From: Candidatus Yanofskybacteria bacterium RIFCSPLOWO2_01_FULL_42_49
GTDB lineage: Bacteria; Patescibacteriota; Minisyncoccia; 2-02-FULL-40-12; GWA2-44-9
Length of the DNA: 64,000 nt
Direction: 5' to 3'
Assembly (NCBI GenBank): GCA_001795615.1
Contig: MGKI01000014.1
Location: 5,380 to 69,379, forward strand
Under the pieces are notes generated by a model. That model had not been told where the DNA came from. It saw nothing but the letters and a program-made list of their open reading frames with translations, and made no database searches. Both the position numbers and the translations under genes were made by a program. Below, piece by piece: positions 42,770 to 62,691 of this stretch (the stretch's first letter is position 1; each line of letters begins with the position of its first letter).

Positions 42770-44128
42770 CTAGTCATCAGTAATGTTAGAATCTTTATAG
42801 AGTTCAAAAGAACTTAGTCCGGCTTCTTTAACTCTCCTATATATTTCGTTATGGTTTCGGATTATTTCCTCTTCACTCATTCCCCTCCCCCATGGCGTCA
42901 CGGGTGCGTATTTAAAAGAAAGTTGCTTTTTGTTTTCCTGATTCCCTCTCCGCCTATGCATTGTATTTTCCCAATCATAACTGACGCTTGCAATACCAAA
43001 TTTTTCCGGATTGTTAAACATTTCTGTACCTGGACGCACAGTGAAAAGTCCCAAGTAAACCAAATCCGGTTGAGTTTCCCGTATAAAGCTCCATGTCTGT
43101 TCGACAATATCATCCGGTTCGCCCGGAAGTCCGATGATCAGATACATCCGAGCCTCAATGTCGTTTGCCTTGAGCATGGCAATTGTTTCGCGGGCCTTTT
43201 GAACGCTTACCTGCTTATTGATAATATCCAGACAACGCTGGGCCACGCTCTCTACTCCCATCCCCAGAGCAACACATCCTGACTGCCGAGCCAAAGACGC
43301 AATCTCCGGCGTCACGCCATCAACGCGGCATTGTCCTCGCCAAAGAATATTAGTCCGTCCTATGGCCTCAAGATGCCGCATAGCAGCTTTTGGGTTTAAA
43401 GGAAAGACGATTTCATCGGTTAAGGATAAGCCCTGGATACCATAATCTTTCTTAAGATATTCAATTTCTGCTTCAACATATTCCGGCTTACGAAAACGAA
43501 TTCCTGGCGCCTCGCGTCTCGCATACTCAATTGCGCAAAATGAACAACGATAAGGACATCCCCGGCTAAACATGGCCGTAGTGCCCCATAGATTCTCCAG
43601 CCCTGATTTATTGCGCAAGGTCAGCACGTTTTTTCGTGCCGTAGCGCTTTTAGGGAGAAAGTGTCTCCTGTCGCAGGAATAAACGTTGATGTCAACAATT
43701 CCATTCGGTCGGTAAATGCGCTTTAACTTACCGGCCTTAAGATCGCGCACAGCTTCAACAATAGTATCGTCCCCTTCACCAAAAATAACCGAATCAAAAA
43801 TCATCATGCACTCATCCGGGAAAAAATTGGCATGAGGGCCTCCTGCAATATGCAGTGCGTCGGGATACTGTTGCCTGAGGATTTCGATAATTCCTCGTTG
43901 CTCGGCAAAATCAAGCGTATATACTGAGTGAAGAAAAACATTACATTCCGGAATATGGTATTTCGCAAAATACCGCTTAATGCCCCGCAGATCTATAAGC
44001 TTGAGATCAATCGCTGAACCAAACGCATCTTCAAGAATAGTGAGAATATGAAAATGCGTAAACGGATCGCCACGGAATGGATCAAACAGATAATCGCTAC
44101 TTGGGAATATGAAGCCGATTTTCAACAT
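42770..44128 (-). CDS. class B radical SAM enzyme (cobalamin-binding domain + radical SAM)
   Basis: B12-binding domain with IAGGPHANF; radical SAM CPYRCSFC (CxxxCxxC); start at the internal ATG (MLKIGFI). Confidence 0.8.
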   Translation of the reverse strand: MLKIGFIFPSSDYLFDPFRGDPFTHFHILTILEDAFGSAIDLKLIDLRGIKRYFAKYHIPECNVFLHSVYTLDFAEQRGIIEILRQQYPDALHIAGGPHANFFPDECMMIFDSVIFGEGDDTIVEAVRDLKAGKLKRIYRPNGIVDINVYSCDRRHFLPKSATARKNVLTLRNKSGLENLWGTTAMFSRGCPYRCSFCAIEYARREAPGIRFRKPEYVEAEIEYLKKDYGIQGLSLTDEIVFPLNPKAAMRHLEAIGRTNILWRGQCRVDGVTPEIASLARQSGCVALGMGVESVAQRCLDIINKQVSVQKARETIAMLKANDIEARMYLIIGLPGEPDDIVEQTWSFIRETQPDLVYLGLFTVRPGTEMFNNPEKFGIASVSYDWENTMHRRRGNQENKKQLSFKYAPVTPWGRGMSEEEIIRNHNEIYRRVKEAGLSSFELYKDSNITDD

Positions 44129-44271
44129 ATTACCTCTTTTTATTAGTGAGCTGCCAAAATTATACAGCACAAATCATATTTTAACAACCTTCCAGAGTTA
44201 CGAACAAGACACCACAAAAATAACAGTGTCAATATGGATAACGATTTTCTGCTATGTTATATTTTTAAATT

Positions 44272-44832
44272 ATGAAAGATACCAAACAGCAACAAAAAGC
44301 CGTCGTTATCACTGCCGAAGGATTTGAAGATGAAGAAGTTATTTACCCGGTCATCCGACTTAAGGAAGAGGGGTTCATGGTTGATATCGCCACTAAAGAC
44401 GCTAAGTCCGTATTGGGACGATTAAACTTCCCCCTTGAACTTATAGTCCGTTATTATGCTACTCTGGTTGATGCTAAGAAATTAAAACCTAATGATTATG
44501 ACCTCGTGCTGATTCCCGGTGGATTTGAAGCGCCTGATAGGATGAGACAGGTACCAGAAATTTTGGAATTTGTCAGGCAAATGCATAAACAAAAAAAAAT
44601 CGTTTCTGCGTTTTGCCACGGCCCTTGGGTACTTATCTCAGCCGGCATAGTTAAAGGCAAGAAGATTGCCGGATACATCGGTATTAAAGACGATATAAAC
44701 AATGCCGGGGCAATTTATACCGACCAACCAGCAGTAATTGACGGAAACATTATCACCGCCAGACACCCAAGAGATATGGGAGATTTAATGAAAGCGATTT
44801 TTAGTAAGTTTAAAGTAGAAAATAGAAAATAG
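44272..44832 (+). CDS. DJ-1/PfpI family protein
   Basis: Nucleophile-elbow AFCHGPW and overall class-I glutamine amidotransferase-like fold. Confidence 0.75.
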   Translation: MKDTKQQQKAVVITAEGFEDEEVIYPVIRLKEEGFMVDIATKDAKSVLGRLNFPLELIVRYYATLVDAKKLKPNDYDLVLIPGGFEAPDRMRQVPEILEFVRQMHKQKKIVSAFCHGPWVLISAGIVKGKKIAGYIGIKDDINNAGAIYTDQPAVIDGNIITARHPRDMGDLMKAIFSKFKVENRK

Positions 44833-44862
44833 GAAATTTTTTAAAATTTTAACTTCCAAAGT

Positions 44863-45591
44863 ATGATCAAAAAAATTCGACAATCTGAATTAGATAAAGA
44901 CTACATAAAAATTAACAAATATCCTATAAGCCCCATCAGTGTCAATCTTAAAAATGTTGTGGTGACTAAACCGTGGGGTTATGAGTATTTAATGTTCAAA
45001 AACAATGAAACCGAGATATGGAATCTGTCTATAAAATACCAGCGTTCCACGTCAATGCACTGCCATCCGAATAAAAAAACTGCCCTTGTTGTTCTAAGCG
45101 GAAGAGCTCAATTTTCAACTCTCAATGAATCATGGGAGTTGATGCCCCACGATGTGATGATAATCGATAAAGGGACATTTCATTCCACCCAAAGCTTGTC
45201 AAAAGAGGGATTAGTGCTATTAGAGTTCGAAACCCCTCCGATGAAACATGACCTACTCAGACTAGAAGATAAATATGGCCGGGCGAGAAAAGGCTATGAA
45301 GAAGAAGTAGACAGAATGATGAAAACTACTGAATATCCCCGTTTTTTAGGAGTCAAAAACAGTAAAGTAAAAAATATCTGCAATAATAAAGTCTGCATAT
45401 TAGAAATTAAAAACAAAAACAACCTTTCAAACTACCCCCAAAAAACCAGAACACTTGCTGTGGTTTTAAGTGGCATGGTTAAGTCAAAAAACGAAGAACC
45501 AATATATGAACCGCCCCACGTCCTTGCTCTGGAAGAACTTCAAGAAGCCGGCCATTTTTTCCATAATGTTTCTTTAATGCTCATCAGGTGA
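44863..45591 (+). CDS. cupin domain protein (type II mannose-6-phosphate isomerase-like cupin)
   Basis: KPWGYEYL...MHCHPNKKTALVVLSGRA cupin motifs. Confidence 0.5.
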   Translation: MIKKIRQSELDKDYIKINKYPISPISVNLKNVVVTKPWGYEYLMFKNNETEIWNLSIKYQRSTSMHCHPNKKTALVVLSGRAQFSTLNESWELMPHDVMIIDKGTFHSTQSLSKEGLVLLEFETPPMKHDLLRLEDKYGRARKGYEEEVDRMMKTTEYPRFLGVKNSKVKNICNNKVCILEIKNKNNLSNYPQKTRTLAVVLSGMVKSKNEEPIYEPPHVLALEELQEAGHFFHNVSLMLIR

Positions 45592-46244
45592 TCCCGAAAG
45601 CAAAAGATTTAATTATATTTGATTTTGACGGCGTATTGGCCGATTCTTTTGACTACTTCTATGCTCTGAACAGAGACGGAATGAAACATGTCGGTCTTTC
45701 TTTTACAAAAGAAGACTATCGAAATCTATTTATCGATAATGTCCATCGGGGATTTAAAGATTTTATAAACAACAACCAAAAATATCTTGCTTATTCAGAG
45801 TTTAGAAAAGCAAATTATGATAGGCGTTACTACGACAAGGAAAGGGGCGTTAAACTATTTCCAAAAGTACCTATATTTCTCAAAAAAATAAGCAAAGCAT
45901 ATCTTCTGGCCGTTGCCTCTTCGGGCCAACAAAAAAACATAAGAAATCTATTAAATAAGGCCGGGGTTGAGAGTTTATTTGATCTAATTTTAGCCGATTC
46001 AAACTATTCTAAAAAGGAGACGATAAAAAAAATATTAAACAAGCATCGAGTCAACTCCGAACAAACTTTCTTTGTCACTGACACTGTTGGTGATGTAAAA
46101 GCCGCAAAAAAATGCGGCCTTAAAACCATAGCCATCACTTGGGGATTCCATGATAAAAAAACTCTCATGACAGCAGGTCCGGACTATATTGTTGCTGACT
46201 TTAAAGCGTTAGGATCAATACTAAAATCTAGCCGACCTAATTAA
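45588..46244 (+). CDS. HAD-IA family hydrolase (phosphatase)
   Basis: IFDFDGVLADS (motif I), VASSG (II), FVTDTVGDVKAAKKCG (III/IV); GTG start overlapping the cupin stop. Confidence 0.75.
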   Translation: MIPKAKDLIIFDFDGVLADSFDYFYALNRDGMKHVGLSFTKEDYRNLFIDNVHRGFKDFINNNQKYLAYSEFRKANYDRRYYDKERGVKLFPKVPIFLKKISKAYLLAVASSGQQKNIRNLLNKAGVESLFDLILADSNYSKKETIKKILNKHRVNSEQTFFVTDTVGDVKAAKKCGLKTIAITWGFHDKKTLMTAGPDYIVADFKALGSILKSSRPN

Positions 46245-46366
46245 ATAATACACAAAACATATACTGAAAGCCGTCATTAAGATGGTTTTTTCTTATCTCG
46301 TCAATATTGACCGATTTTGATAATTTTGAGATGAGTAAATAAGTTTTTTAAAAAAGGACCGACAAA

Positions 46367-47563
46367 ATGATTTATAGATACCCTCTAGCTGACGATACTG
46401 TAACCAAGGATGATCGAGAGGCCTTGGCTCAGTGGATCTTGGAAGATCCGTCTCCACGTTTTACAATGGGACCGCTGGTAAGGCAATATGAGGAAAAATG
46501 GTCTAACTGGCTGGGAAGACGGTATTCTGTATCTTGTAACTCGGGTTCATCGGCAAACTTGCTGATGTATTATGCCCTGCTTCGTTCAAGCCGGTTGAAA
46601 AACAAAAAAGTCATCGTACCCAGCGCCGCTTGGGTTACCACCATAGCACCTGCTATTCAGTTGGGGTTTGAACCGATAATGTGCGATGCCGACTATGATA
46701 CATGGGCGCTTAATCGAAGACATTTGAGACAACTGCTTGAAGAACACCATCCCGGAACCGTAACATTGGTTCAGGTTCTCGGAGTTCCCCATAATATGGG
46801 TGACCTGATGGAGTTAAAAAATAAATACGGATTTTTTCTTCTTGAAGACTCTTGCGCCGCAATGGGTTCATCATACCATGGAAAAAAGGTCGGAACATTT
46901 GGCGACATGGCTTCAATGTCAACCTACTATGGACACCAGTTTTCTACTATAGAAGGCGGTTTTGTTTCAACAGACGATAAAGACTTATCCGACATGCTCG
47001 TGATGCTAAGAAGCCACGGCTGGGTGGCTCATCTTGACCCGGAAACCAGAGCTGGAATGCTCAAGAAATATGAAATAGAAGATATCGGAACTAATTTCGT
47101 TTTCTGTGAACCGGGGTTTAACTTCCGACTGACCGATCTTCAGGCATTTATCGGTATGCGGCAATTAAACAGAATGAACTGGCTGGTTGAAAGAAGATCT
47201 GAAAATCACCGCCTTTACAAGCAACTTCTTGGTAGTCGGTTTATAACACAGGCCTACGACGACAAGACAACTGTCTGCAGTATCCATTTTTGCGCGTTAG
47301 CGGCTAATTACGAAGAAAGAAATTATATTATTAAGATGCTTGAAAACGAGAGCATAGAAACGCGGCCCTTTACTTCGGGCAACCAGGGACTACAGCCGTA
47401 TTGGTTCAGAGAATATGGAAAATTTTCCTCTTCTATGGCCAATAAACTTTATCATTGCGGGTTTTTTCTGCCCAATCATCCGTATCTTAAAAAAGAAGAT
47501 ATCGAGTTTATCTGTTCGGTAGCGACCAAAGCGGTTCAAGACTTCCGAAAAAGAGGAAAATAA
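46367..47563 (+). CDS. DegT/DnrJ/EryC1 family PLP/PMP enzyme with His replacing the Schiff-base Lys (ColD/E1-like sugar 3-dehydratase)
   Basis: Family fold throughout. The active-site block STYYGHQFSTIEGG aligns to SFHAIKNITCAEGG with His at the Lys position. That substitution is the hallmark of GDP-4-keto-6-deoxymannose 3-dehydratase (ColD) and CDP-sugar E1 dehydratases. Confidence 0.6.
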   Translation: MIYRYPLADDTVTKDDREALAQWILEDPSPRFTMGPLVRQYEEKWSNWLGRRYSVSCNSGSSANLLMYYALLRSSRLKNKKVIVPSAAWVTTIAPAIQLGFEPIMCDADYDTWALNRRHLRQLLEEHHPGTVTLVQVLGVPHNMGDLMELKNKYGFFLLEDSCAAMGSSYHGKKVGTFGDMASMSTYYGHQFSTIEGGFVSTDDKDLSDMLVMLRSHGWVAHLDPETRAGMLKKYEIEDIGTNFVFCEPGFNFRLTDLQAFIGMRQLNRMNWLVERRSENHRLYKQLLGSRFITQAYDDKTTVCSIHFCALAANYEERNYIIKMLENESIETRPFTSGNQGLQPYWFREYGKFSSSMANKLYHCGFFLPNHPYLKKEDIEFICSVATKAVQDFRKRGK

Positions 47564-48511
47564 ATGGCAAAAATCCTTGTGACTGGTGCGGCAGGATATA
47601 TCGGTTCAATTCTTGTTCCCATGCTTTTACGAGAAAGCCACGAAGTTGTTGTTTTGGATAACTTCATGTATAGACAAAACTCTCTGCTCGATTGTTGCAA
47701 TGACAAGAGATTGGTCATCATACGAGGTGACACCAGAGACGAGAAGCTGGTCGATAAAATCTTTAGAGACTACCCCCTTGATTATGTGTTTCCCCTCGCG
47801 GCCATAGTAGGAGCCCCGGCTTGCGACAAAGATCCGATAAGTTCCACGACAACAAATGTTGGCGGGGTAATGGAGGTTTCGCAAAGATGGATCGGGGCGC
47901 GAACCCCGCGAATAATTTTCCCAAACACCAATAGTGGCTACGGCATAGGCCAAGAAGGCGTTTATTGCACAGAAGATAGTCCGCTTAATCCGATATCTCT
48001 TTATGGCCGCCAGAAGGTTGAGGCGGAAAAATCTGTCTTGGAAATCGGCAACACGATCGTGTTGCGGTTAGCCACCGTATTCGGCGTTAGTCCAAGAATG
48101 CGTCTTGACCTTCTAGTCAACGACTTCGTCCATAGAGCCATGAACGATCATTATGTTGTCCTCTTTGAGCCGCACTTCAAAAGAAATTATATTCATGTCC
48201 GAGATGTGGCCAGGGCATTTATTCATTGCATGGAAAACTTTGACACGATGAAAAACCAGGTCTACAATCTTGGTTTAAGTGACGCAAATCTAAGCAAGTG
48301 GGAACTTTGCGAAGAGATACAAAAACAGGTGCCAAATTTCTACTTTATCGAAGCAAAAATAGGCGAAGATCCGGATAAACGCAACTACATTGTCAGCAAC
48401 GCAAAAATAGAAGCAACCGGATTTCGTCCCCGTTTTTCTCTACAAGACGGAATTGCTGAGTTGATAAGAGGCTACCGAATCATAAGGAAAAGTGAATTTT
48501 CTAACCTATAG
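47564..48511 (+). CDS. NAD-dependent epimerase/dehydratase family protein (extended SDR)
   Basis: ILVTGAAGYIGS Rossmann motif; SLYGRQK catalytic YxxxK. Confidence 0.75.
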   Translation: MAKILVTGAAGYIGSILVPMLLRESHEVVVLDNFMYRQNSLLDCCNDKRLVIIRGDTRDEKLVDKIFRDYPLDYVFPLAAIVGAPACDKDPISSTTTNVGGVMEVSQRWIGARTPRIIFPNTNSGYGIGQEGVYCTEDSPLNPISLYGRQKVEAEKSVLEIGNTIVLRLATVFGVSPRMRLDLLVNDFVHRAMNDHYVVLFEPHFKRNYIHVRDVARAFIHCMENFDTMKNQVYNLGLSDANLSKWELCEEIQKQVPNFYFIEAKIGEDPDKRNYIVSNAKIEATGFRPRFSLQDGIAELIRGYRIIRKSEFSNL

Positions 48512-48538
48512 AGAGCAAGAAGCTCTCTATTTTTATTT

Positions 48539-49036
48539 TTATTTAGCGGATCTTATTTTCTCAATAATTTTTGAGGTTGAAATATTTGCAAATTTTGGAG
48601 GACAAAAACGCTCAAGAACGATAATTGTAACCCCGTACTTTCTGGCTAGATTTTTTCTGTAAGGAATATCGAAGGCATCTTGGTTTATAATATATGCATC
48701 GGGTTTTAATTTTTTAAAAGTTTCTTCAATTATATCAAGGGGGTGGTTATCCTTTTTGCTTTCATCTAAAAAACAATAGTCTACCGGTTTAATAGAATCA
48801 ATTAACTTTAACCTGATGTGTTGATTTAAAATTGGACGGTTCTTGCCTTTGTTTACTTTCAGTATGTAGTCGTTTCCGACTCCGACAACAAGAATATCTC
48901 CATATTTTTTGCAATCTTCAAAAAATAAAACATGCCCGGCATGGGTCAGGTCAAAAGAACCCGAACAGAAAACTATCTTCTCGTCCTTGTGTTGCTCCCT
49001 TATTAACTTGAGGCCGTTATAGTTTTTACAAATCAT
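48539..49036 (-). CDS. cytidylyltransferase-family nucleotidyltransferase (RfaE domain II / TagD-like)
   Basis: VFCSGSFDLTHAGHVLFFEDCKKYGDILVVGVGND (HxGH family). The start is placed at the internal ATG, avoiding overlap with the divergent Nudix gene. Confidence 0.6.
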   Translation of the reverse strand: MICKNYNGLKLIREQHKDEKIVFCSGSFDLTHAGHVLFFEDCKKYGDILVVGVGNDYILKVNKGKNRPILNQHIRLKLIDSIKPVDYCFLDESKKDNHPLDIIEETFKKLKPDAYIINQDAFDIPYRKNLARKYGVTIIVLERFCPPKFANISTSKIIEKIRSAK

Positions 49037-49106
49037 AGCCCCTATAATATACAGAAAATCATCTGACTTGACAAATACATAATTTAATAATACACATAAC
49101 AATAAA

Positions 49107-49715
49107 GTGGCGGTAAATTTTAAAAATAAGGAGAGCGTCTTGGAGGTGAAACCTTGGGAGAAAGTGGGCGAACCCAATACCATAATTCAAATACATGACA
49201 AGCGGATAGTTATGCGGAAATTTAAAAATCCACGCACCAATAAGGTGGAGGAGTTTTATCAGTTCGGAACCACGCCCTATGCTTGTATCATTCTGCCTTT
49301 AAACACTGACAACGAGGTTCTAGCTGTAAAACAATTTCGTCACGGAGCAGATAAAATTTTACTCGAACTTCCGGGTGGAAACCCCAAAACGCCGGAACAA
49401 ACACCCGAAGAAGTGGCGGAAGAAGAGCTGTTTGAAGAATCGTTGGGCCACAGAGCAGAAAAGATTATAAAATTAAACAGTGAACCGCTGTGGTTTAATC
49501 CGGCAACTTTCATTACGCCATTCCACGCATTTCTTGCCCTTGGCTGCCGCCAAACAGAAGAAAGTTTTAAATTAGATCAAGGGGAATATCTAGAGTTAAC
49601 CAAAATCCCCCTGAAAAAATGGCTTGCTATGTGCACCAGCGGTAAAATCGTTGATGCAAAATCAATGGCCGTAACGTTTTTAGCCCTTGATAACATCGGC
49701 CTAAAAATTACATAG
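49107..49715 (+). CDS. Nudix hydrolase family protein with degenerate Nudix box
   Basis: The Nudix box GGNPKTPEQTPEEVAEEELFEESLG has the REuxEE arginine replaced by Glu. It is a paralog of the 54389 Nudix. The start may be TTG at 49140, after AAGGAG. Confidence 0.6.
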   Translation: MAVNFKNKESVLEVKPWEKVGEPNTIIQIHDKRIVMRKFKNPRTNKVEEFYQFGTTPYACIILPLNTDNEVLAVKQFRHGADKILLELPGGNPKTPEQTPEEVAEEELFEESLGHRAEKIIKLNSEPLWFNPATFITPFHAFLALGCRQTEESFKLDQGEYLELTKIPLKKWLAMCTSGKIVDAKSMAVTFLALDNIGLKIT

Positions 49716-49770
49716 AACGGCCTCGAAACTGTCACGATAAAAACCCCGATTATGCGGGGCTTTTTAATAA

Positions 49771-54943: not shown

Positions 54944-54955
54944 GCGTTTTTTGGT
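54927..54955 (+). terminator. intrinsic terminator overlapping the Nudix stop codon
   Basis: aaacgcc-ttta-ggcgttt followed by TTTTT. Confidence 0.55.
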
Positions 54956-55025
54956 TATTTTGACATAAATCACTCAGTATTATATTGTAGTAGCCAGCTA
55001 AAGTACTTTTAAAAAACGAGGAGAC

Positions 55026-55835
55026 ATGAATCTCGAACTGAAAGGAAGGTTGGCTTTAGTTACCGGTTCAACCCGCGGACTAGGCAAAGCCATTGCTGAA
55101 GCATTAGCGGCAGAAGGCGCCGACATTATCATAAATGGACGATGGAGTAAAACCGTCGGCAACGTTGCATACGAAATTGAACATAAATTCGGTCATAACA
55201 TTCACGTTTATCAATGCGCATGTGACGCAACTGACCCCAAAAAAATAAAAGAATTTTTTAGCGGAAAAATGCTCCAGATAGGCCACTTGGATATTCTGGT
55301 GAACAATATCGGCAACTTAGAAAAATTCGGAAATTTTTTCGAACTTGAAGATGAGAACTGGTTAAGATGCTACGACCTAACCTGCATGAGCGCGGTCCGC
55401 TTCACCAGAGAAGCCATACCATATCTTGAAAGATCCGGACGCGGAAGAATAATCAATATCTCGAGTTTGTCGTCGCATCAGCCGGGTAACTTTTCTCCCC
55501 ATTACTCTGCGGCAAAAGCGGCTATGAATAACTTGACTAAGCATTTAGCCAATGTTTTGGGAGGTAAAAATATTCTGGTAAATGCGGTCTGTCCCAGCAC
55601 TCTCTCGAGCGGAGGATGGGCTCAAAACATCATAGACAGATCGAGAAGAGACGGAATTACAACTGAACAGGCCGAACAACTGATGCGCAATGAAGACAAT
55701 AAAAAATCTCCCCTTGGCCGAATAGGCATGGCGGAAGATGTCGCAAATTTAGTGGTATACCTGGCCTCTGATAAAGCAAATTTCCTAACCGGACATATTT
55801 TTGATATTGACGGCGGAATTACAAGAGGGGTATGA
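55026..55835 (+). CDS. classical short-chain dehydrogenase/reductase (SDR)
   Basis: LALVTGSTRGLGKAIA (TGxxxGxG), NNIG, YSAAK (YxxxK). Confidence 0.8.
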   Translation: MNLELKGRLALVTGSTRGLGKAIAEALAAEGADIIINGRWSKTVGNVAYEIEHKFGHNIHVYQCACDATDPKKIKEFFSGKMLQIGHLDILVNNIGNLEKFGNFFELEDENWLRCYDLTCMSAVRFTREAIPYLERSGRGRIINISSLSSHQPGNFSPHYSAAKAAMNNLTKHLANVLGGKNILVNAVCPSTLSSGGWAQNIIDRSRRDGITTEQAEQLMRNEDNKKSPLGRIGMAEDVANLVVYLASDKANFLTGHIFDIDGGITRGV

Positions 55836-55836
55836 G

Positions 55837-56778
55837 ATGAGTAAAACCAAGGTTCTCATCTGTGGCGCAAACGGATTTATCGGACGCAATTTATTTGAAC
55901 ACTTTAATTCTGACGACGGATACGAAACCTACGGGACTTACTTTAAGAATAAGCCGAATGTTTTTAGTCCCAGGATATTCCAAGCTGACCTACGGGATAA
56001 AGATGAGGCATTACGGGCAACTCAAGGCATGGACATTGTAATTAATGCCGCGGCTTTGACTGACGGAATGGGGGCTTTTGATCCAACGACATATATTCCT
56101 CAAAACAGAGTGATAAACAATAACTTAATTGAAGCCGCTCACATAAATAGAGTAAAACACTTTATCTTTCTTAGCTGTACGGTGATGTATCCCTCAAGCG
56201 AAAGACCCCTGAAAGAAGATGAATATGATCTGAACAATGTCCATCCAAAATATAAAGAAGGCGCTCAAATGAAACTAGAGGGAGAGTGTTTGTGTTTGTC
56301 GTATGCTAATCTAGGAATTACAAAATATACTGCCATCCGCCATACAAATATTTACGGCCCTTATGATAAGTTTGACTTAAAACGCGGACATGTTCTGCCG
56401 GCCACCATCACAAAAGTGATGGAAGCAAAAGATAAAATCACAGTTTGGGGTAATGAAAAAGAATCAAGAGATTTTCTTTACATTGATGACCTAGCTAAGT
56501 TTATTGAGAAGGCCATTGAAAATCAGAAAAATAATTTTGAACTATTCAATGTTGGATATGGAAAAACATGTTCCGTAAATAAATTAGTCCAGAAAATAAT
56601 TTTCTGCTCGGGGAAAAAACTGGATGTCGTCCATGACCTCGAAAAACCTACGGTTGAAACACATATGAACATTGACGTAAAGAAAGCAAATAATGTTCTT
56701 GGCTGGAAAGCCGAAATCGGATTATCTGAAGGACTCGTTATTACACTGGATTGGTATCATAACCACTACCCGCGCTAA
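55837..56778 (+). CDS. NAD-dependent epimerase/dehydratase family protein (GDP-sugar epimerase/reductase-like)
   Basis: VLICGANGFIGRNLFEHF; the extended-SDR fold; ATG at 55837 follows AGAGGGG. Confidence 0.7.
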   Translation: MSKTKVLICGANGFIGRNLFEHFNSDDGYETYGTYFKNKPNVFSPRIFQADLRDKDEALRATQGMDIVINAAALTDGMGAFDPTTYIPQNRVINNNLIEAAHINRVKHFIFLSCTVMYPSSERPLKEDEYDLNNVHPKYKEGAQMKLEGECLCLSYANLGITKYTAIRHTNIYGPYDKFDLKRGHVLPATITKVMEAKDKITVWGNEKESRDFLYIDDLAKFIEKAIENQKNNFELFNVGYGKTCSVNKLVQKIIFCSGKKLDVVHDLEKPTVETHMNIDVKKANNVLGWKAEIGLSEGLVITLDWYHNHYPR

Positions 56779-56797
56779 GTGCGGGTTTTATTTTACA
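56768..56797 (+). terminator. intrinsic terminator
   Basis: acccgc-gctaagt-gcgggt followed by TTTTATTTT. Confidence 0.5.
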
Positions 56798-56848
56798 GAA
56801 TATAAAAAGTATGGTAGAAAAAGTCATTGTACTTTAAAAAGGGTGGCC

Positions 56849-57649
56849 ATGATAAATCCTTCATTCCTAATAACGGGAACATCGTCTGGTCTTGGACGCT
56901 ACCTATTGGAAGAACTACGGGGTACCCCATTCAATCGTAAAGACACGGAAAATGAGATAAGTAGTCATTCCAAAGATTATTATGACGCCATCATCCATTG
57001 CGCGGTTGACGCAAGGAATATCATCCCCCCTCATGAATTACTCGCCTATTATGAATCAAATGTAGAACTTACAAGAAAGTTGACTCAAATTCCTCATGGT
57101 CTATTTGTTTATATTTCATCGCCCGCTGTATATCCTAATCCCCTGCGCTTGAATAAAGAGACCGACATCCCCGATATTCCTGAAGTCGTATCGCCCGTTC
57201 ATCACACTTATTATCTTTACGGACTTTTTAAATTTCTTAGTGAGCAAATAGTATCAAAATACGCTAAGGATCATCTTGTTCTCCGTTGTGCTCATATTTT
57301 GGGCAGAACAAGCAGAGAATCGAGTAACGTAGTCAGAGTACTTAAGGATGATCGTAGCCAACTTACATTAAGCGCTGATACTACTTTCAGTTTCGTAAGT
57401 ATGGAACAGCTGAAAAAATTCATTGAATTGGCATTGACAAAAAACATCACCGGCATATTCAACGCGGGTTCTAGCCAATACTTGACTCTTGGAGAGATAG
57501 CCAGAGCGGTCAACAGTAAGCCCAATTTTGGAAAATTTGTCCATAATGTACACAAAATAGATACTACTAAGATCAGGGGGGTTTCAGCAGAGTTTAATAA
57601 AGGATCCCTTGAATTAGCCATGGAAACCGCCAAGGAACTACGAAGTTGA
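56849..57649 (+). CDS. atypical SDR / NAD(P)-dependent sugar-nucleotide reductase-like protein (RmlD-like)
   Basis: FLITGTSSGLGRYLLEEL Rossmann motif and a 266-aa length; start at ATG 56849 after AAAGGG. Confidence 0.5.
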   Translation: MINPSFLITGTSSGLGRYLLEELRGTPFNRKDTENEISSHSKDYYDAIIHCAVDARNIIPPHELLAYYESNVELTRKLTQIPHGLFVYISSPAVYPNPLRLNKETDIPDIPEVVSPVHHTYYLYGLFKFLSEQIVSKYAKDHLVLRCAHILGRTSRESSNVVRVLKDDRSQLTLSADTTFSFVSMEQLKKFIELALTKNITGIFNAGSSQYLTLGEIARAVNSKPNFGKFVHNVHKIDTTKIRGVSAEFNKGSLELAMETAKELRS

Positions 57650-57706
57650 CACAGGATTACAAATGCCTTAAGTTGATATCTAGCACATTAAACAAAAGAG
57701 CAACAA

Positions 57707-58498
57707 ATGTTTGACAGGCCTATTGAACTTACTCCTGAACAAATAAGGCTTTACGACGACAAGGGATATTTGGTCGTAGAAAACATTTTTAGTAGCGAAG
57801 AATGTGAAGATGCAATAGCAATATTTGAGCGACACGCAAGATTAGCGGGAGATATAGAATTTAAGGGCGTAATGAACCTCGACAGACCTGAAGAGTGGAC
57901 CCATGTTTATAAACCTAACGAAAAGCATGTCCATCAATATGTAAGACATGTCCTTCTAAAGCATCCTGCCATTGTGACAATACTAGAGATCCTCCAGAGA
58001 ACGGAGCCGGGCGGAGTGGTTTTAATGCAAAGCATGTTCCTGTATAAAAAGGCTCGATCTCTCTATAATGAACAGGCCTGGAACCCTCATCAAGATGGAA
58101 TATATCATGGCTCGCCCGTAGGCGGGACATTAACGGCAAATATAGTCCTTACCGATCAAGATAAAGAAAATGGCGGTATGTTCATTTATCCCGGCTCTCA
58201 TAAAGAAGGATTTCTTGAACCGGAAAAAAAGAAAAGTTTCCACGAAGGCCGTGGCAACAGGCCGGGGCATGATCTTAGCAATCATCCGATCTTTAAAGAA
58301 AAATATTCCGGTAAAGAAATTGATCTTATAATGAAGGCCGGTTCTGTTCTATTCCTTCATGGTTGCGTTATCCATGGATCATATTCAAATAGATCAGAAA
58401 ATCGGGATCGGCCAATGCTTCTAAGCCCTTACAAGACCCAAGGTCTGTCCTTTATTTCCGGTGAAAAGGGTAAGCGAATGGAAATACCGATAAGATAG
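57707..58498 (+). CDS. phytanoyl-CoA dioxygenase (PhyH) family Fe(II)/2-oxoglutarate oxygenase
   Basis: PhyH-like N-terminus (LTPEQIRLYDDKGYLVVENIFS) and iron-binding HQD...H pattern (WNPHQDG...HGCVIHGS). Confidence 0.75.
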   Translation: MFDRPIELTPEQIRLYDDKGYLVVENIFSSEECEDAIAIFERHARLAGDIEFKGVMNLDRPEEWTHVYKPNEKHVHQYVRHVLLKHPAIVTILEILQRTEPGGVVLMQSMFLYKKARSLYNEQAWNPHQDGIYHGSPVGGTLTANIVLTDQDKENGGMFIYPGSHKEGFLEPEKKKSFHEGRGNRPGHDLSNHPIFKEKYSGKEIDLIMKAGSVLFLHGCVIHGSYSNRSENRDRPMLLSPYKTQGLSFISGEKGKRMEIPIR

Positions 58499-58514
58499 AC
58501 AATAGAAGTACACA

Positions 58515-58545
58515 AAAACGGCGTTAGCCGTTTTTTATTTCTATG
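58515..58545 (+). terminator. intrinsic terminator
   Basis: aaacggc-gtta-gccgttt followed by TTTTATTT. Confidence 0.5.
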
Positions 58546-58604
58546 GACATTTTTGTATAATATGATATTATAATTTCAGTTTTTGTACTTTTACAAGGAG
58601 GAGC

Positions 58605-60482
58605 GTGGCAATCAATTTACTGGCAAGACCTCCATCAGAATCGCAAATTTTGATAGCAGAAAAGATCAAGAAAAAACTGCCCAACGGCTGCAGAAAAATT
58701 CTATTGGTTATGCCGCCCAATGTCCCTGAAGAGGATTGGGATCCGGAAGTGGCCGGCAATAACAGATATCCGGTATATGACCCTTACGGCTTAGGCGTTC
58801 TCGCCGCCTGCGCCGATTTAAGAAGTTATGAGACGAATATTATTGATCTTAATTTTATGCTTCAAGATAATTTTAAGAGTGGCCGGGGAAATTTCCAATA
58901 TGAATATTGGAAAAAGTGGCTCAAGCAAAAAATGGAAGAATTCAAGCCCGATATGGTTGGCATAACCTGTATGTTCACCATTTACCATCGTTCAATGGTC
59001 AGAGTTGCCGAGTTCGTCAAAGAATACAACTCAAACATAGTCGTCATTGCCGGCGGCGTCCATACGACTATGGCCTCAACTGACGTTATATCAGCTCCCG
59101 GCCAACTTGTCCTTGAAGATTGCAAAGCGATAGATTTTGTCGGCCTATACGAGTGCGAGAACAGTTTCCCTGATTTTCTTGATATAGCAAACGGTAAATT
59201 GAATCCTGAAAGTATGACCCAAATTGCCACCCTCATAAACGATCAATATACGGGAATTTTAAAAAGGGCGGAACCAAAACAAGAAATATTGAATATCGCT
59301 CCAAATTATCATAACCTGCCGATCGAAAGATACAGTTCTATCGGAAGAATAGGCACTTTCTACTGGCTATTCAAGCCCGCAACAAGAGCCGGAACAATCC
59401 GTTTCAATTATGGCTGTCGGGCTCATTGCAGATTCTGTTCCGTAGAAAAAATAACCGGCAAAGGCATCGTATTAAAAAGAGACGTGGACGTAGTTCTAGA
59501 CCAACTTGAGCGCTTAAAAGACATGTATGGGATTAGCCATGTGATGTTTCTGGATGACGACATATTCAACGGAGAAGAAAGAACCGTAGCGCTTTTTGAG
59601 GGCTGGGCAAAAAGAAAGTTAAATATCACATGGGATGCTTCAAATGGTGTTATCGCTTCAGCGTTGACGCCTGAGATCGCGCATGCCGCGTCAGAATCAG
59701 GATGCATCGCTTTAAGTTTCGGCATTGAATCAGGAAATCCGGAAGTGTTAAGAAATATACCAAAACCAAGCGGAGTTAAGCATTATCTGCGTGCCGGAGA
59801 AATAATGAAAAAACATCCAGAGATATTCACTAAAGGATTACTGATGGTCGGTTTTCCGCCCGAACCGGAAAGAAATTTTCCCGGGGAATCGATCGGAATG
59901 ATCTGGGATACCATTAACCTTGCCAAACAAATGGATTTGGACTGGTACACCATATCACCCCTCAACCTTATCCCCGGCGTGGAGATTACAAATCACGCGA
60001 TAGTTCGAGGCGAGATAACAAAACAGGGATTAATTGACGGCTCGGAAAGACCAATCGTTAATTCAACCGGTCAACAAGCTCTAAGGGCCAGACGCGAAAA
60101 AGAAAGTGCCCTGCCGTTCGTTGACCATCTCGCCGGAGATCCAAACGGAATTCCAGCCAGAGAAGATCTTATTGATATTTGGTTTGTTATGGATTACAAG
60201 GTCAACTATGAAAAAATGTGGCATTTGGAAAATCCCTTAAAAATAGAAATGCTGCATAAATTATTCGTCAACATGTGTGACAAAACCCATAAAGAAAATG
60301 CCCTGGGAAATCTGTATTTTGCTCTCTTGGAGCATGAACGCAATGACAGAACACAGGCAAGTTATCGTTTAAATTTAGCCGAAGAGTTTGCAAGAGATAA
60401 TGATTACTGGAGAGTAAGGTTCCCGAAAATGGGATTTGATAAATTAGCCGCTGATCTGCGACAAATGATAAATGGGGCTTAA
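58605..60482 (+). CDS. class B radical SAM enzyme (cobalamin-binding domain + radical SAM), 625 aa
   Basis: B12-binding domain (VIAGGVHTT); radical SAM cluster CRAHCRFC; SPASM-lacking C-terminal extension. Confidence 0.8.
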   Translation: MAINLLARPPSESQILIAEKIKKKLPNGCRKILLVMPPNVPEEDWDPEVAGNNRYPVYDPYGLGVLAACADLRSYETNIIDLNFMLQDNFKSGRGNFQYEYWKKWLKQKMEEFKPDMVGITCMFTIYHRSMVRVAEFVKEYNSNIVVIAGGVHTTMASTDVISAPGQLVLEDCKAIDFVGLYECENSFPDFLDIANGKLNPESMTQIATLINDQYTGILKRAEPKQEILNIAPNYHNLPIERYSSIGRIGTFYWLFKPATRAGTIRFNYGCRAHCRFCSVEKITGKGIVLKRDVDVVLDQLERLKDMYGISHVMFLDDDIFNGEERTVALFEGWAKRKLNITWDASNGVIASALTPEIAHAASESGCIALSFGIESGNPEVLRNIPKPSGVKHYLRAGEIMKKHPEIFTKGLLMVGFPPEPERNFPGESIGMIWDTINLAKQMDLDWYTISPLNLIPGVEITNHAIVRGEITKQGLIDGSERPIVNSTGQQALRARREKESALPFVDHLAGDPNGIPAREDLIDIWFVMDYKVNYEKMWHLENPLKIEMLHKLFVNMCDKTHKENALGNLYFALLEHERNDRTQASYRLNLAEEFARDNDYWRVRFPKMGFDKLAADLRQMINGA

Positions 60483-60561
60483 CGCTCCATTTTTTTATTT
60501 ATTTGCTAAAAAATGCATTTTAGTGTATAAAATTAGCATTGAACTTTAAAAATGAGGCGCT

Positions 60562-62691
60562 ATGACAGGGTCTAAGATGCTCAAAGTCATTCAGCCGAAT
60601 GAAAGTCCGCCGTATCCGATAGCAACTAAACCTCCGCCCAGAAAAATAAAGATAGGGCCGATCCAGCTTAACAACAGTTTCTCTGGACAGTGCTATTTAC
60701 CCCTTTCGGTTGGAATGCTGCAGGCCTATGCCCAAAAGCATTTATCTTATGCCGATCATTATGAATTCCTGTTGGCCGTTTATGACTTCGCGCCGATTTC
60801 TAAAATCGTAGACCAGCTAAGCAATGCCGATGTTTTGGCTATAAGTTTATATGTCTGGAATTTTGAGAATTCAATGGCTATCGCCAGAGAGTTCAAGAGT
60901 CGTTATCCGGACAGGTTGGTGATAGTGGGAGGGCCGCATGTGCCGGACAGCAAAAAACAATTTGCGAGAATAAAGAAAACCGACCCTAAGCCGGATGAGT
61001 TGAAGCGCAAAAGAATGGGGATGACCGAAAAATTTCACAGAGACCATCCTTATATTGACATAGCCGTACACGGCGAAGGTGAAAAAGTATTTAGATACAT
61101 ACTGGAACAACTGGCAATTGACGGCTTGAGAGATAAAACAAAACTGCCCTCAGTAAGTTATCTTGAGCATGACGGGGTATTCCATCACAACCCCAAACTC
61201 GAACGGATGCATGACCTATCCGAAGTACCGTCTCCGTATCTGGAAGGCGTATTTAACCCCCTCATGGATGCCCATCTCGACCAAAAATGGATTGCAATGT
61301 GGGAAACCGACCGGGGTTGTCCATATCAGTGCACTTATTGCGATTGGGGCGGAGCCACCGAAGACAAAGTCAATCCATTTCCCTTCGACAGAGTATCCCG
61401 AGAAGCCGTTTGGTTCGGCAAACATAAAATACCTTATATTTTTCTGGCCAATGCTAATTTCACTATTCTAAAAATAGATGTTGAAATAGCAAGAAAATTA
61501 GCCGAGGTTAAGGCAACATATGGTTACCCTGAAGGTATATCCGTTCAGAACGCCAAAAACCCCAAACCCCATGCCTTTGAGGCTCTGACTATCCTTGAAG
61601 AAGCCGGACTGAACAAAGCCACTGTTATGTCCATTCAATCTAAGAATTATGATACGCTAAAAGCGGTCCGCAGAGAAAACATGAAACCAGGAGAATATAA
61701 GGAAATCCAAAGTAGATTAAGAGAAAAGGGTGTTTACACAATGACTGATTACATTCTTCCTATGCCAATGGAAACATATGACAGCTTGCTAAATGGAATT
61801 GCCGCTATTATATCAGAGGGTCAACATGATAGGATTCAATTCAACAATTTGTCTATATTGCCAAACGCTGAAATGGGCGATCCAGAATATCAAGAACTTT
61901 ACGGAATGGATATGGTCAGAACGTCAATAACCAATATTCACGGCAAGAAAAGCGATTCCGTCAGTGGCGTTGAAGAAATGCAGGACTTGGTCATCGCGAC
62001 CAATACCATGCCCCGCGAAGAATGGGTCAAAGCCAGGACATTATGCTACGTGGTCGCGTTTACTTACTTCAACAAGCTTCTCCAGATACCGACAATGATT
62101 CTGCATGAGGTCTACGATATTCCTTATCGAGATATTTTTGAAACATTGATGGAAAAGCCGAAGCAAACTGACAACTTTCCAGTTTTTCGGGAAATATTGG
62201 ACTTCTTTCACTCTTTCTCACGAGGTATGCAAGACGGAACGCAGGAAGAATTCTTCCACTCTTCGGAATGTCTGGATATATTGTGGCCACCAGATGAGTA
62301 CGCGTTGATTAAATTATGCCGAGAAAACAAGCTTATAGAATTTTATAAAGAAGCGGAACAAATGTTAAAGCAACTTGTGGAACCGAATAAACAAGTAGAG
62401 CCCCTCATTGAAGCCGTGAAACTCAACCAGTCGCTTATCAAATTACCATTCCAGACCAATGACTTAGAAATAAATCTATCATACAATATTTGGGAAATAT
62501 ATCAAGCCGCTCGTCTGGAGAAGAAAATTAAACTGAAACAAGAGAGCCATCGACATACTATCGACCGAACCAGCGAACATTGGGATTCGTGGGAAGAGTG
62601 GTATGAAAAAATGGTCTGGTGGTGTAATCGCCGAGGCGCCTATCTTTACGGAAATAAAAATCCTGTTCCAGACATTGAAGGACATCACTAA
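60562..62691 (+). CDS. class B radical SAM enzyme (cobalamin-binding domain + radical SAM), 709 aa
   Basis: B12-binding domain (LVIVGGPHVPD); radical SAM cluster CPYQCTYC; long C-terminal extension. Confidence 0.8.
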   Translation: MTGSKMLKVIQPNESPPYPIATKPPPRKIKIGPIQLNNSFSGQCYLPLSVGMLQAYAQKHLSYADHYEFLLAVYDFAPISKIVDQLSNADVLAISLYVWNFENSMAIAREFKSRYPDRLVIVGGPHVPDSKKQFARIKKTDPKPDELKRKRMGMTEKFHRDHPYIDIAVHGEGEKVFRYILEQLAIDGLRDKTKLPSVSYLEHDGVFHHNPKLERMHDLSEVPSPYLEGVFNPLMDAHLDQKWIAMWETDRGCPYQCTYCDWGGATEDKVNPFPFDRVSREAVWFGKHKIPYIFLANANFTILKIDVEIARKLAEVKATYGYPEGISVQNAKNPKPHAFEALTILEEAGLNKATVMSIQSKNYDTLKAVRRENMKPGEYKEIQSRLREKGVYTMTDYILPMPMETYDSLLNGIAAIISEGQHDRIQFNNLSILPNAEMGDPEYQELYGMDMVRTSITNIHGKKSDSVSGVEEMQDLVIATNTMPREEWVKARTLCYVVAFTYFNKLLQIPTMILHEVYDIPYRDIFETLMEKPKQTDNFPVFREILDFFHSFSRGMQDGTQEEFFHSSECLDILWPPDEYALIKLCRENKLIEFYKEAEQMLKQLVEPNKQVEPLIEAVKLNQSLIKLPFQTNDLEINLSYNIWEIYQAARLEKKIKLKQESHRHTIDRTSEHWDSWEEWYEKMVWWCNRRGAYLYGNKNPVPDIEGHH

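Follow-up and report, generated by a model that had tools for sequence, protein, structure and literature searches.

Four putative class-B radical SAM tailoring enzymes in a predicted surface-glycan island of a Candidatus Yanofskybacteria genome

Why would a CPR bacterium, tiny and symbiotic, carry four B12-type radical SAM genes at a single locus, and what would their products modify? The window, a stretch of 64,000 nucleotides, stems from a Candidatus Yanofskybacteria (Patescibacteria/CPR) genome of ~1 Mb, and the four genes, termed R1 to R4, span 20 kb within a glycan island exceeding 50 kb, in which GDP-sugar and heptose genes are also found. Four genes within 20 kb of ~1 Mb, together with the co-recurrence of the same families in independent genomes, indicate a clustering beyond chance. 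In line with this, B12 radical SAM genes numbered two or three in 12 of 14 distinct CPR loci, as they usually do at the R4-homologue loci of other Patescibacteria. We consider it reasonably probable (about 60%) that R1–R4 are class-B (cobalamin-type) radical SAM tailoring enzymes of a surface-glycan island building unusual nucleotide-activated sugars, most likely as cobalamin-dependent enzymes that would act mainly as C-methylases on nucleotide-sugar intermediates.

All four reading frames were intact where they had originally been predicted: R1 at 42770..44128 (minus strand, 452 aa), R2 at 51748..53277 (minus strand, 509 aa), R3 at 58605..60482 (plus strand, 625 aa) and R4 at 60562..62691 (plus strand, 709 aa). 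For R1, a GTG at 44170 would give 466 aa (42770–44170), and the ATG at 44128, preceded by the Shine-Dalgarno sequence AAAGAGG, gives 452 aa. The radical SAM motifs read exactly as first quoted, CPYRCSFC at residue 205 of R1, CPYHCDFC at 229 of R2, CRAHCRFC at 271 of R3 and CPYQCTYC at 253 of R4, as did the GG(x)H motifs at residues 110, 117, 150 and 123, respectively. The proposed class-B architecture of B12-binding and radical SAM domains was upheld by Pfam, with Radical_SAM (PF04055) above the gathering score in all four proteins and B12-binding (PF02310) above it in R1 (36.5 bits), R2 (56.4) and R3 (41.3) and slightly below it in R4 (28.8 vs 32.1).

Pairwise alignment yielded identities of 20–27% over partial lengths, pointing to ancient, diverged relatives and agreeing with the proposal that the genes are not recent duplicates, and the R4 and R3 family profiles matched with an hhalign probability of 95% at 17% identity. 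None of the four proteins reached a curated NCBIfam cutoff. Judged from their sequences, R1–R4 are four separate subfamilies and not local duplicates; paralogues is a loose term for subfamilies that each have their own wide distribution and their own conserved partners, and they need not share one sugar substrate. Family placement also shifted the reference points from GenK, Fom3 and OxsB, as first suggested, to TokK/CysS as the nearest relatives of R4 and, remotely, HpnJ/AprD4 for R2, with R1 and R3 lacking a close characterised relative.

R4 was assigned by phmmer, Pfam and family alignment as a three-domain B12 radical SAM protein of the TokK/ThnK/CysS type. Its phmmer matches in the PDB included TokK (7kdx, E 4e-89) and CysS (9n1b, E 2e-51), where the N-terminal domain aligned to the TokK cobalamin domain (69 bits, 44% identity over 91 residues) and a second stretch, extending beyond the radical SAM core, showed 34% identity over 368 aligned residues. 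With ~36% identity over 459 aligned residues R4 is by this measure closer to TokK than CysS is (29%). Besides the three-domain architecture, R4 shares the tryptophan under the cobalt (W99; W76 in TokK, W75 in CysS) and the active-site tryptophan (W262; W215 in TokK, W206 in CysS), both of which are invariant in the R4 family. In contrast, the substrate-contact residue (R280 in TokK, W271 in CysS) is replaced by a conserved Ser327, so that the R4 substrate cannot be read from homology; moreover, a conserved basic insertion of ~24 aa follows GGPHVPD, and the C-terminal domain past about residue 530 is not alignable to TokK and CysS. The KedN5-type family, whose HMM gave R4 243 bits vs a cutoff of 700, includes TokK/ThnK (carbapenem C6 alkylation) and CysS (cystobactamid alkoxy extension), cobalamin-dependent radical SAM iterative C-methylases whose known substrates are pantetheine-tethered and belong to antibiotic clusters, whereas R4 resides in a sugar-nucleotide gene context in CPR bacteria. 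R4 has 1746 homologues. In 18 genome loci, R4 homologues of 41–86% identity were all found among GMD-like, Fcl-like, DegT, TK/E1, PhyH, GHMP and GmhA genes, while relatives of 25–31% identity lose this context, indicating that the sugar-gene association is clade-specific. A classical short-chain dehydrogenase (62823..63635, plus strand; adh_short in Pfam) directly follows R4, and the order TKn-TKc-short SDR-R4 recurs in four loci. R4 is a predicted C-methylase, possibly an iterative one.

R3, assigned by Pfam, NCBIfam and AF2/Foldseek, has 381 homologues and ends in a helical domain of ~135 aa. Its top NCBIfam matches were the P-methylases Sden_1168 (111 bits) and PhpK (107 bits), both below cutoff, and its AF2 model (pLDDT 93, pTM 0.91) matched TsrM, QCMT, AprD4, OxsB and CysS. 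A conserved PhyH-family Fe(II)/2-oxoglutarate dioxygenase gene lies upstream (57707..58498, plus strand; 84 bits in Pfam); the PhyH-R3 pair is present in seven loci, in one of which (L009) the two genes overlap by 4 bp. R1 scored 74.8 bits for Radical_SAM, its top NCBIfam matches being BchE, PhpK and BzaD at ~100–107 bits, far below the cutoffs. This subfamily is small (~15 close representative clusters), and its members adjoin R4 homologues in six loci, often in convergent orientation. Both R3 and R1 are most likely methylases as well.

R2, placed by Pfam, NCBIfam, AF2/Foldseek and its cassette, is a member of a very large family that crosses phyla, with 4480 homologues at E ≤ 1e-10, and is ~50% identical to homologues of Pirellulales, Binatia and Elusimicrobiota. 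Its genes are arranged as GHMP kinase - SDR - split transketolase - DegT - R2 - GT2, a conserved cassette detected on contigs of Pirellulales and others as well as in 80 metagenome loci. Of 42 loci, 35 encoded the TPP C-half, 27 the N-half and 26 DegT in the 4.5 kb upstream of the R2 homologue. Homologues elsewhere are preceded by split TK/E1 pairs; in the window a fused transketolase-type TPP enzyme lies directly downstream of R2 (49771..51606, minus strand; Transketolase_N, Transket_pyr and Transketolase_C in Pfam), with an NCBIfam transketolase score of 318 bits vs a cutoff of 488. The AF2 model of R2 (pLDDT 88.4, pTM 0.91) matched AprD4, TsrM, QCMT, OxsB, CysS and TokK. The original prediction had named two outcomes that would speak against it, N-terminal domains not modelling as B12-binding folds, and a grouping with BchE, HpnR or other non-glycan clades together with a lack of synteny with sugar-nucleotide genes; instead, the R2 and R3 models adopt class-B folds, and the synteny is conserved over dozens of loci.

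For R2, both a methylase and a rearrangement role are open. HpnJ, a hopanoid-associated B12 radical SAM enzyme, is its best NCBIfam match and covers nearly the full length (122.5 bits vs a cutoff of 577.6), and AprD4, the apramycin radical SAM 1,2-diol dehydratase, is its best PDB match by sequence, profile and fold, with a family score of 52.8 vs a cutoff of 500. HpnJ has been proposed to contract a sugar ring, not to methylate, which counts against our main reading, and acts on a glucosamine-derived moiety; AprD4 likewise acts on an amino-sugar moiety, paromamine, according to the PDB entry title. Hopanoid and aminoglycoside genes are absent near R2, and its family has its own conserved cassette. 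With OxsB matching the R2 profile over both domains (E 8.7e-10) and the DegT enzyme that usually precedes R2 suited to supply an amino sugar, comparable to the glucosamine substrate of HpnJ, it is possible, albeit at appreciably lower odds than the main reading, that one or more of R1–R3, R2 above all, are non-methylases. They would then catalyse a radical rearrangement or elimination on sugars, with or without cobalamin, such as a ring contraction or the making of a carbocycle, as by HpnJ or OxsB, or a 1,2-diol dehydration (deoxygenation) like that of AprD4. The solved relatives of R1–R3 are only remote, with AprD4 among the best, and since the N-terminal domain of AprD4 is not known to use cobalamin, the B12 dependence of R1–R3 is not assured. 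Nevertheless, the HpnJ, AprD4 and OxsB matches all fall far below the family cutoffs, and the B12-binding domain exceeds its gathering threshold in R1–R3. Methylation is also the commonest chemistry of characterised class-B enzymes (PMC12931638).

The neighbouring genes point to nucleotide-sugar synthesis. At 30785..35489 we found a bona fide GMD (gmd, 503 bits vs a cutoff of 415), two GDP-fucose-synthase-like proteins (Fcl, 284 and 403 bits), a GmhA-like isomerase (gmhA, 155 bits) and a GmhB-like phosphatase, based on SIS and HAD domains and NCBIfam. Further downstream, all on the plus strand, lie a HddA-like GHMP sugar kinase of the heptose-7-phosphate kinase type (39744..40745; GHMP_kinases_N and _C; NCBIfam HddA 165 bits, below cutoff), 52% identical to the R2-cassette kinase of another locus, and a fused TPP enzyme of the E1 (pyruvate-dehydrogenase alpha/beta)-like type, its gene convergent with that of R1 (40820..42715; E1_dh; PDH E1 alpha 97.6 bits, below cutoff), with homologues of 52–53% identity in L009. 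The trio of DJ-1/PfpI, cupin and HAD phosphatase (44272..46244, plus strand) also adjoins the R3 homologue in L009. It is followed by a DegT sugar aminotransferase or 3-dehydrase (228 bits in Pfam; RfbH and PseC ~187 bits each, below cutoff) and an NAD epimerase/dehydratase (Epimerase; 46367..48511, plus strand), a pair with 55–79% identical homologues in four loci. An RfaE-domain-II-like nucleotidyltransferase (minus strand; CTP_transf_like; rfaE_dom_II 83.6 bits) and a Nudix hydrolase (plus strand; NUDIX; NudE-like 42 bits) occupy 48539..49715, their 5' ends overlapping as listed. Five plus-strand genes at 53418..57649 encode a GMD-like 4,6-dehydratase, a Nudix protein, a classical SDR, a GDP-fucose-synthase-like reductase/epimerase and a degenerate SDR. 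In most of the CPR loci, counterparts of these genes are found next to the R3 and R4 homologues.

A surface destination is suggested by the glycan assembly genes assigned by Pfam at 19938..30038, comprising a UDP-Glc/GDP-Man dehydrogenase-like protein, an initiating sugar-phosphate transferase, a GT2, a Wzx-type flippase, an unassigned membrane protein, an SGNH protein, a carbamoyltransferase and a PMT_2 GT-C. Alternatively, the island would make a diffusible glycosylated small molecule, aminoglycoside- or orthosomycin-like, in which case the radical SAM enzymes would tailor a natural product as GenK, TokK and CysS do. The characterised R4 relatives TokK, ThnK, CysS and KedN5 all come from antibiotic pathways, avilamycin and paulomycin synthesis both employ E1-like enzymes that install branches, and the island encodes an ABC exporter, next to a 660-aa polytopic membrane protein matching no Pfam family (35982..39754, plus strand; ABC_tran, ABC_membrane); both are kept beside an R4 homologue in one other locus. 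We regard this as unlikely in view of the initiating transferase, flippase, PMT_2 GT-C and GT2, of three TIGR04440 glycosyltransferases just downstream, and of the lack of aglycone machinery (PKS, NRPS, cyclitol synthase, carrier protein) in the island. Gene content moreover differs among related genomes, a variability typical of surface-antigen loci. That the co-location is incidental and R1–R4 act on lipids, peptides, tRNA or cofactors, as the tetrapyrrole, hopanoid, phosphinate and RiPP pathway enzymes among their top NCBIfam matches might suggest, is highly improbable, because every family is repeatedly found, across independent genomes and phyla, next to sugar-nucleotide genes, the R4 association is clade-specific, and precursor peptide, lipid and tetrapyrrole genes were not found in the locus.

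For the favoured reading of R1–R4 as surface-glycan tailoring enzymes, gene integrity, domain architecture, fold, family placement and conserved synteny are established, and we infer cobalamin binding, substrates, methylation chemistry and step order from homology and synteny. The GmhA, HddA-like, GmhB and nucleotidyltransferase enzymes, with those of the GMD/Fcl types, would provide an NDP- (probably GDP-) heptose or 6-deoxyhexose and 4-keto intermediates. This toolbox of isomerase, kinase, phosphatase, nucleotidyltransferase, GMD/Fcl-type SDRs and aminotransferase is common to Campylobacter capsule GDP-heptose modification and the lincosamide octose pathway, neither of which is known to involve a B12 radical SAM enzyme or a transketolase/E1 partner. 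One of the compared loci (L032) also contains a transaldolase. Two-carbon units may be added or transferred by the transketolase/E1-type enzymes, modelled on YerE, AviB1/AviB2 and Pau11/Pau12, TPP enzymes placing C-4 acetyl branches on NDP-4-keto sugars, the latter two pairs being E1 alpha/beta-like (PMC4753412). Similarly, E1-/transketolase-like TPP enzymes, 4,6-dehydratase-like proteins and ketoreductase-like SDRs neighbour R2 and R4 homologues; the TPP enzymes here differ in that they are fused proteins of 631 and 611 aa or belong to the transketolase type, and the known branched-sugar pathways have no described radical SAM partner.

DegT enzymes would contribute amination, SDR and AKR enzymes reduction and PhyH hydroxylation, while R1–R4 would functionalise unactivated carbons. 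[quoted passage not shown] The substrates of GenK, GenD1/GntE, Fms7 and MoeK5 are sugars of pseudo-oligosaccharide antibiotics and not nucleotide sugars for a surface glycan. These enzymes are entered as Csp3 methylases (PMC12931638). They resemble the ones proposed here in their chemistry, class-B methylation of unactivated sugar carbons. Two further points count against the main reading: the window showed neither a riboswitch nor a transporter or salvage gene for cobalamin, and PhyH requires O2, to which radical SAM enzymes are labile. Taken together, the recurrence of each of the four types beside sugar-nucleotide genes in many other genomes suggests surface sugars that are uncharacterised and probably methylated on carbon.

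The genes for the four B12-binding/radical SAM proteins R1 (42770–44170, minus strand; 466 aa from a GTG start), R2 (51748–53277, minus strand; 509 aa), R3 (58605–60482, plus strand; 625 aa) and R4 (60562–62691, plus strand; 709 aa) were recovered as described in the original prediction, where the 452 aa given for R1 correspond to an alternative ATG start at 44128 preceded by AAAGAGG. The motifs quoted there are exact in all four proteins, and the cysteines of the CxxxCxxC cluster, located at residues 205 (R1), 229 (R2), 271 (R3) and 253 (R4), are invariant in the family alignments. The proposed class-B architecture, combining a B12-binding-type amino-terminal domain with a radical SAM core, was evident from Pfam: all four proteins exceed the gathering score of PF04055 (Radical_SAM), and R1, R2 and R3 also exceed that of PF02310 (B12-binding). 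For R4, PF02310 scored just under the gathering score (28.8 vs 32.1), and the assignment comes from the alignment of its amino-terminal domain with the cobalamin domain of TokK (69 bits). The structural models of R2 (pLDDT 88.4, pTM 0.91) and R3 (pLDDT 93, pTM 0.91) support the expected B12-binding fold, as both resemble known class-B structures over their full length (TsrM, QCMT, OxsB, CysS and TokK); AprD4 is also among the best PDB matches of the R2 model, and R3 carries a carboxy-terminal helical domain in addition to the class-B fold. By this likeness of domains and folds, R1–R4 are putative cobalamin-dependent enzymes. AprD4 has a similar amino-terminal domain, yet is not known to use cobalamin.

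The pairwise identities among R1–R4 amount to 20–27% over partial lengths only, and the family profiles of R4 and R3 match with an hhalign probability of 95% at 17% identity, indicating that the four proteins are distant members of one superfamily. A recent or local duplication is ruled out by these low identities and by the closer homologues of each gene, which lie in other genomes and not in its own locus, in agreement with the predicted diverged paralogues. None of the four proteins reached a curated NCBIfam cutoff, and we therefore refrain from applying the names BchE, HpnJ, PhpK or KedN5 to them. The scores of R1, R2 and R3 against the AprD4 family of diol dehydratases (NF033070; 48.9, 52.8 and 27.3 bits, respectively, vs a cutoff of 500) reflect a likeness at the fold level only. 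Single-sequence searches of the PDB with R1–R3 yielded only remote matches (AprD4, QCMT and the TokK cobalamin domain), and profile searches gave better E-values, still without revealing a close relative; OxsB was matched remotely by the R2 profile only (E = 8.7e-10), besides the fold matches.

For R4, the PDB searches returned TokK (7kdx; E = 4e-89) and CysS (9n1b; E = 2e-51). R4 is 44% identical to TokK over a 91-residue segment of the cobalamin domain and 34% identical over 368 aligned residues in a second stretch, compared to 29% identity between CysS and TokK themselves. In TokK, Trp76 lies beneath the cobalt and Trp215 between cobalamin and substrate, a pair of family signatures absent from other methylases. 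Their counterparts in R4, W99 (YVW(99)NF) and W262 (CDW(262)G), are invariant in 22 R4 homologues of 49–100% identity. The residues anchoring the pantetheinylated substrate (TokK R280 and Y652; CysS W271) are in contrast not recognisable in R4: the position at which TokK Arg280 anchors the substrate and CysS Trp271 gates the active site is occupied by Ser327, which is nearly invariant in the R4 family. Past approximately residue 530 the carboxy-terminal domain cannot be aligned to TokK or CysS, and the score against the KedN5 family (NF033712) is 243.4 bits vs a cutoff of 700. A conserved, strongly basic insertion of ~24 residues (window 60952–61032; R4 residues ~131–157) directly follows the GGPHVPD strand of the cobalamin domain, and is absent from TokK as well as from the R3 family. 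The retained tryptophan pair together with Ser327, the divergent carboxy terminus, the basic insertion and the score below the family cutoff place R4 with the TokK/CysS-type enzymes, yet in a separate clade, best described by its sequence as a sister clade of the TokK/ThnK/CysS (KedN5-type) family. R4 is thus most likely a TokK/CysS-type methylase with a different substrate. The predicted GG(P)H motif is present in R4 itself, but its histidine is not kept across the R4 family, where the consensus reads GGPQVPD, indicating that it does not ligate the cobalt. This agrees with TokK and CysS, in which the residue beneath the cobalt is a tryptophan and does not ligate it.

With 4480 of the scored candidates reaching E ≤ 1e-10, the R2 family is very large; its members share ~50% identity between Pirellulales, Binatia and Elusimicrobiota. 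On three long contigs we observed the order SDR (short-chain dehydrogenase type), E1a/TKn, E1b/TKc, DegT aminotransferase, R2, where TKn and TKc denote the amino- and carboxy-terminal halves of a split transketolase and E1a and E1b their E1-like counterparts, all of them TPP enzymes; a GT2 glycosyltransferase is next in two of the three. One of these contigs (L032) encodes a TKc–DegT fusion and a transaldolase, and another contains a GHMP kinase. A metagenome scan gave 589 confirmed R2 relatives, from which 80 loci were mapped, 42 of them with at least 4.5 kb of upstream sequence. Within these 4.5 kb, the TPP carboxy-terminal half was found in 35/42 loci, the amino-terminal half in 27/42 and DegT in 26/42, the commonest order in the mapped loci being GHMP, SDR, TKn, TKc, DegT, R2, (GT2). 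A compact cassette of the form [SDR]–GHMP kinase–SDR–TKn–TKc–DegT–R2-like–[GT2] occurs on dozens of contigs (within loci L031–L113, e.g. L044, L062, L069 and L112), originating from soil, sediment and water metagenomes and from a Pirellulales MAG. Its components are present in the window in dispersed form: the GHMP kinase shares 52% identity with that of the cassette, and the transketolase, here a fused protein, is encoded directly downstream of R2. The best family match of R2 is HpnJ (TIGR03471), at 122.5 bits vs a cutoff of 577.6, and its neighbours are transketolase, DegT, SDR, GHMP kinase and GT2 genes in place of a hopanoid (hpn) context. Judged from its sequence, R2 may catalyze either a methylation or a rearrangement or elimination of the HpnJ, OxsB or AprD4 type.

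R3 has 381 homologues, many of which share contigs with R4 homologues. Its scores against the P-methyltransferases PhpK (107 bits vs 600) and Sden_1168 (111 vs 575) stay below the respective cutoffs. A gene for a PhyH-type Fe(II)/2-oxoglutarate dioxygenase is located directly upstream of R3 homologues in seven loci (L009, L011, L013, L014, L016, L018 and L029), overlapping the R3 homologue by 4 bp in one of them (L009:9219–11842), and in the window it occupies 57707–58498 ahead of R3. In this conserved pairing, one enzyme depends on O2 and the other, the radical SAM protein, is O2-labile. The R1 subfamily is small, with ~15 close representative clusters, and its members are convergent with R4 homologues in L016, L017, L019 and L020 and occur also in L011 and L013. 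The score of R1 against the BchE anaerobic cyclase is 106.7 bits, with a cutoff of 481, and no tetrapyrrole genes were found in the window.

Scanning the R4 family alignment against one genome per species yielded 20 loci. All named genomes with an R4 relative of at least 50% identity belong to the Patescibacteria (Yanofskybacteria, Daviesbacteria, Nomurabacteria, 'Saccharibacteria' and Patescibacteria group). The sugar context is retained around a Pseudodesulfovibrio relative (41%) and absent for relatives at 25–31% identity (Desulforapulum, Rickettsiales, Verrucomicrobiales). In 12 of the 14 distinct CPR loci, two or three B12 radical SAM genes lie within ~10 kb of the R4 homologue; their combination differs between loci, and some loci include two R4 paralogues. 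Such R4-type pairs, placed a few kb apart and ~52% and 42–46% identical to R4, were found in L008/L024, L012, L017 and L021, suggesting that the sugar-associated TokK-like clade comprises at least two subclades. An incidental co-location of R1–R4 with sugar genes is rejected on this conserved synteny. The anticipated linkage to sugar-nucleotide genes is present in R4-homologue, R3-homologue and R2-cassette loci alike. The competing grouping with non-glycan clades such as BchE, considered in the original prediction, is disfavoured by scores far under the BchE and HpnJ cutoffs and by the same conserved synteny, the nearest known relatives being TokK and CysS in the case of R4.

The four genes reside in a single glycan island extending from ~20 kb of the window onward and past its end; R4 was found on 13 metagenome contigs, the longest of 141 kb. 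The island encodes an assembly machinery (initiating sugar-phosphate transferase, GT2, Wzx-type flippase, GT-C (PMT_2), SGNH and carbamoyltransferase) as well as precursor genes of the GDP type (a bona fide GMD and three GDP-fucose-synthase-like SDRs) and of the heptose type (GmhA-like isomerase, GmhB-like phosphatase, HddA-like kinase and RfaE-II-like nucleotidyltransferase). The tailoring genes comprise two large TPP enzymes, one E1-like and one transketolase, along with DegT, two Nudix hydrolases, DJ-1, cupin, HAD, PhyH and several SDRs. Beyond the window end the contig continues with a kinase, HAD, aldo-keto reductase, transketolase amino-terminal half, three TIGR04440 glycosyltransferases, a HemN-type radical SAM protein and a second DegT. 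The HemN-type gene, which brings the island's radical SAM genes to five, sits between the three TIGR04440 glycosyltransferases ~5.3 kb past the window end (L001:18718–20103, plus strand; 461 aa, on the locus overlapping the window, whose coordinates plus 50561 give window positions). Its product scores 364 bits, above the curated hemN equivalog cutoff of 325, and may not be a coproporphyrinogen oxidase. Together with R1–R4 it gives the highest count among the loci examined. Two polytopic membrane proteins of 660 aa (37772–39754, plus strand, after an ABC exporter) and 385 aa (24585–25742, minus strand) have no Pfam or NCBIfam match and are candidate polymerases, ligases or GT-C enzymes; the 660-aa protein and the ABC exporter are conserved together beside the R4 homologue in L012. 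At 48539–49715, a nucleotidyltransferase ORF (minus strand) and a Nudix ORF (plus strand) share 77 nt at their 5' ends as listed, the true start of the former being probably internal, since its Pfam match begins at residue 73.

Outside the island, three adjacent genes at 4565–7462 (minus strand) encode a Cas4-like plus RNase H-like protein, a PD-(D/E)XK nuclease and a JAB-domain protein, and adjoin housekeeping genes. A 318-aa protein (9130–10086, minus strand) fuses a cytidylyltransferase-like amino-terminal domain to a weak carboxy-terminal DAC domain (DisA-type diadenylate cyclase; 23.6 bits, under the gathering score), and SecA (10767–13706, minus strand) contains low-complexity insertions rich in N, S, K and Q, two examples spanning 23 and 18 residues.

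Taking the sequence evidence together, R1–R4 are best read as putative tailoring enzymes acting on nucleotide-sugar intermediates. In characterised pathways, the E1-like pairs AviB1/B2 and Pau11/12 as well as YerE install C-4 acetyl branches on sugars, and a ketoreduction step follows (PMC4753412). The order TKn, TKc, short SDR, R4 recurs in L008, L012, L021 and L024, and L007 shows the order R4, SDR, Nudix, SDR, E1a, E1b, SDR, suggesting that R4 acts on the product of a TPP enzyme and may add methyl groups one after another to lengthen a short carbon branch. We tentatively propose, at a probability of about 0.3, that CPR episymbionts such as Yanofskybacteria produce heavily C-alkylated, branched higher-carbon surface sugars by a route not yet described. 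Here, a transketolase/E1-type enzyme would place a two-carbon branch on an NDP-keto-sugar, and the TokK-type enzyme would next lengthen this branch through repeated rounds of cobalamin-dependent radical methylation, with the R1, R2 and R3 families adding further radical steps; the R2 cassette would represent a separate, widespread cross-phylum pathway to an amino sugar or carbasugar. If true, this would be the first carbohydrate substrate for the TokK-type enzyme family.

CPR genomes generally lack cobamide synthesis, so that such a glycan would depend on host-derived B12. The window contains no cobalamin or SAM riboswitch (no Rfam match at all at gathering thresholds), no detected tRNA genes and no recognisable cobalamin uptake gene. 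The Yanofskybacteria lineage UBA5738 is a specific ectoparasite attached to Methanothrix and lacks most biosynthetic pathways (PMC9600506); by analogy, the host may plausibly supply cobamide to this aquifer organism, and the specific attachment suggests a possible role for surface structures in recognising the host.

For most cobalamin-dependent radical SAM enzymes no function has been assigned and, to our knowledge, the characterised sugar-modifying ones derive from antibiotic pathways. Literature searches returned no description of the R1–R4 families or of the R2 cassette, none of CPR glycan loci with B12 radical SAM enzymes, and nothing relevant on such enzymes in CPR, nucleotide-sugar/polysaccharide, transketolase plus DegT or O-antigen contexts. 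The enzyme class is already known, as is its general chemistry; for the clades, for their carbohydrate context and for the clustering of several such enzymes these searches gave no earlier account. Four uncharacterised subfamilies gain a testable context in nucleotide-sugar tailoring for a surface glycan, a TokK/CysS-type enzyme is placed in carbohydrate metabolism, and a conserved cross-phylum R2 cassette, present on hundreds of metagenome contigs, is defined. Should the chemistry be confirmed, it would provide new C-alkylated sugars and biocatalysts methylating unactivated carbons of nucleotide sugars. For CPR biology, over 50 kb of a ~1 Mb genome and no fewer than four B12-type enzymes are given over to surface sugars; this Yanofskybacteria organism would also depend on scavenged cobamide.
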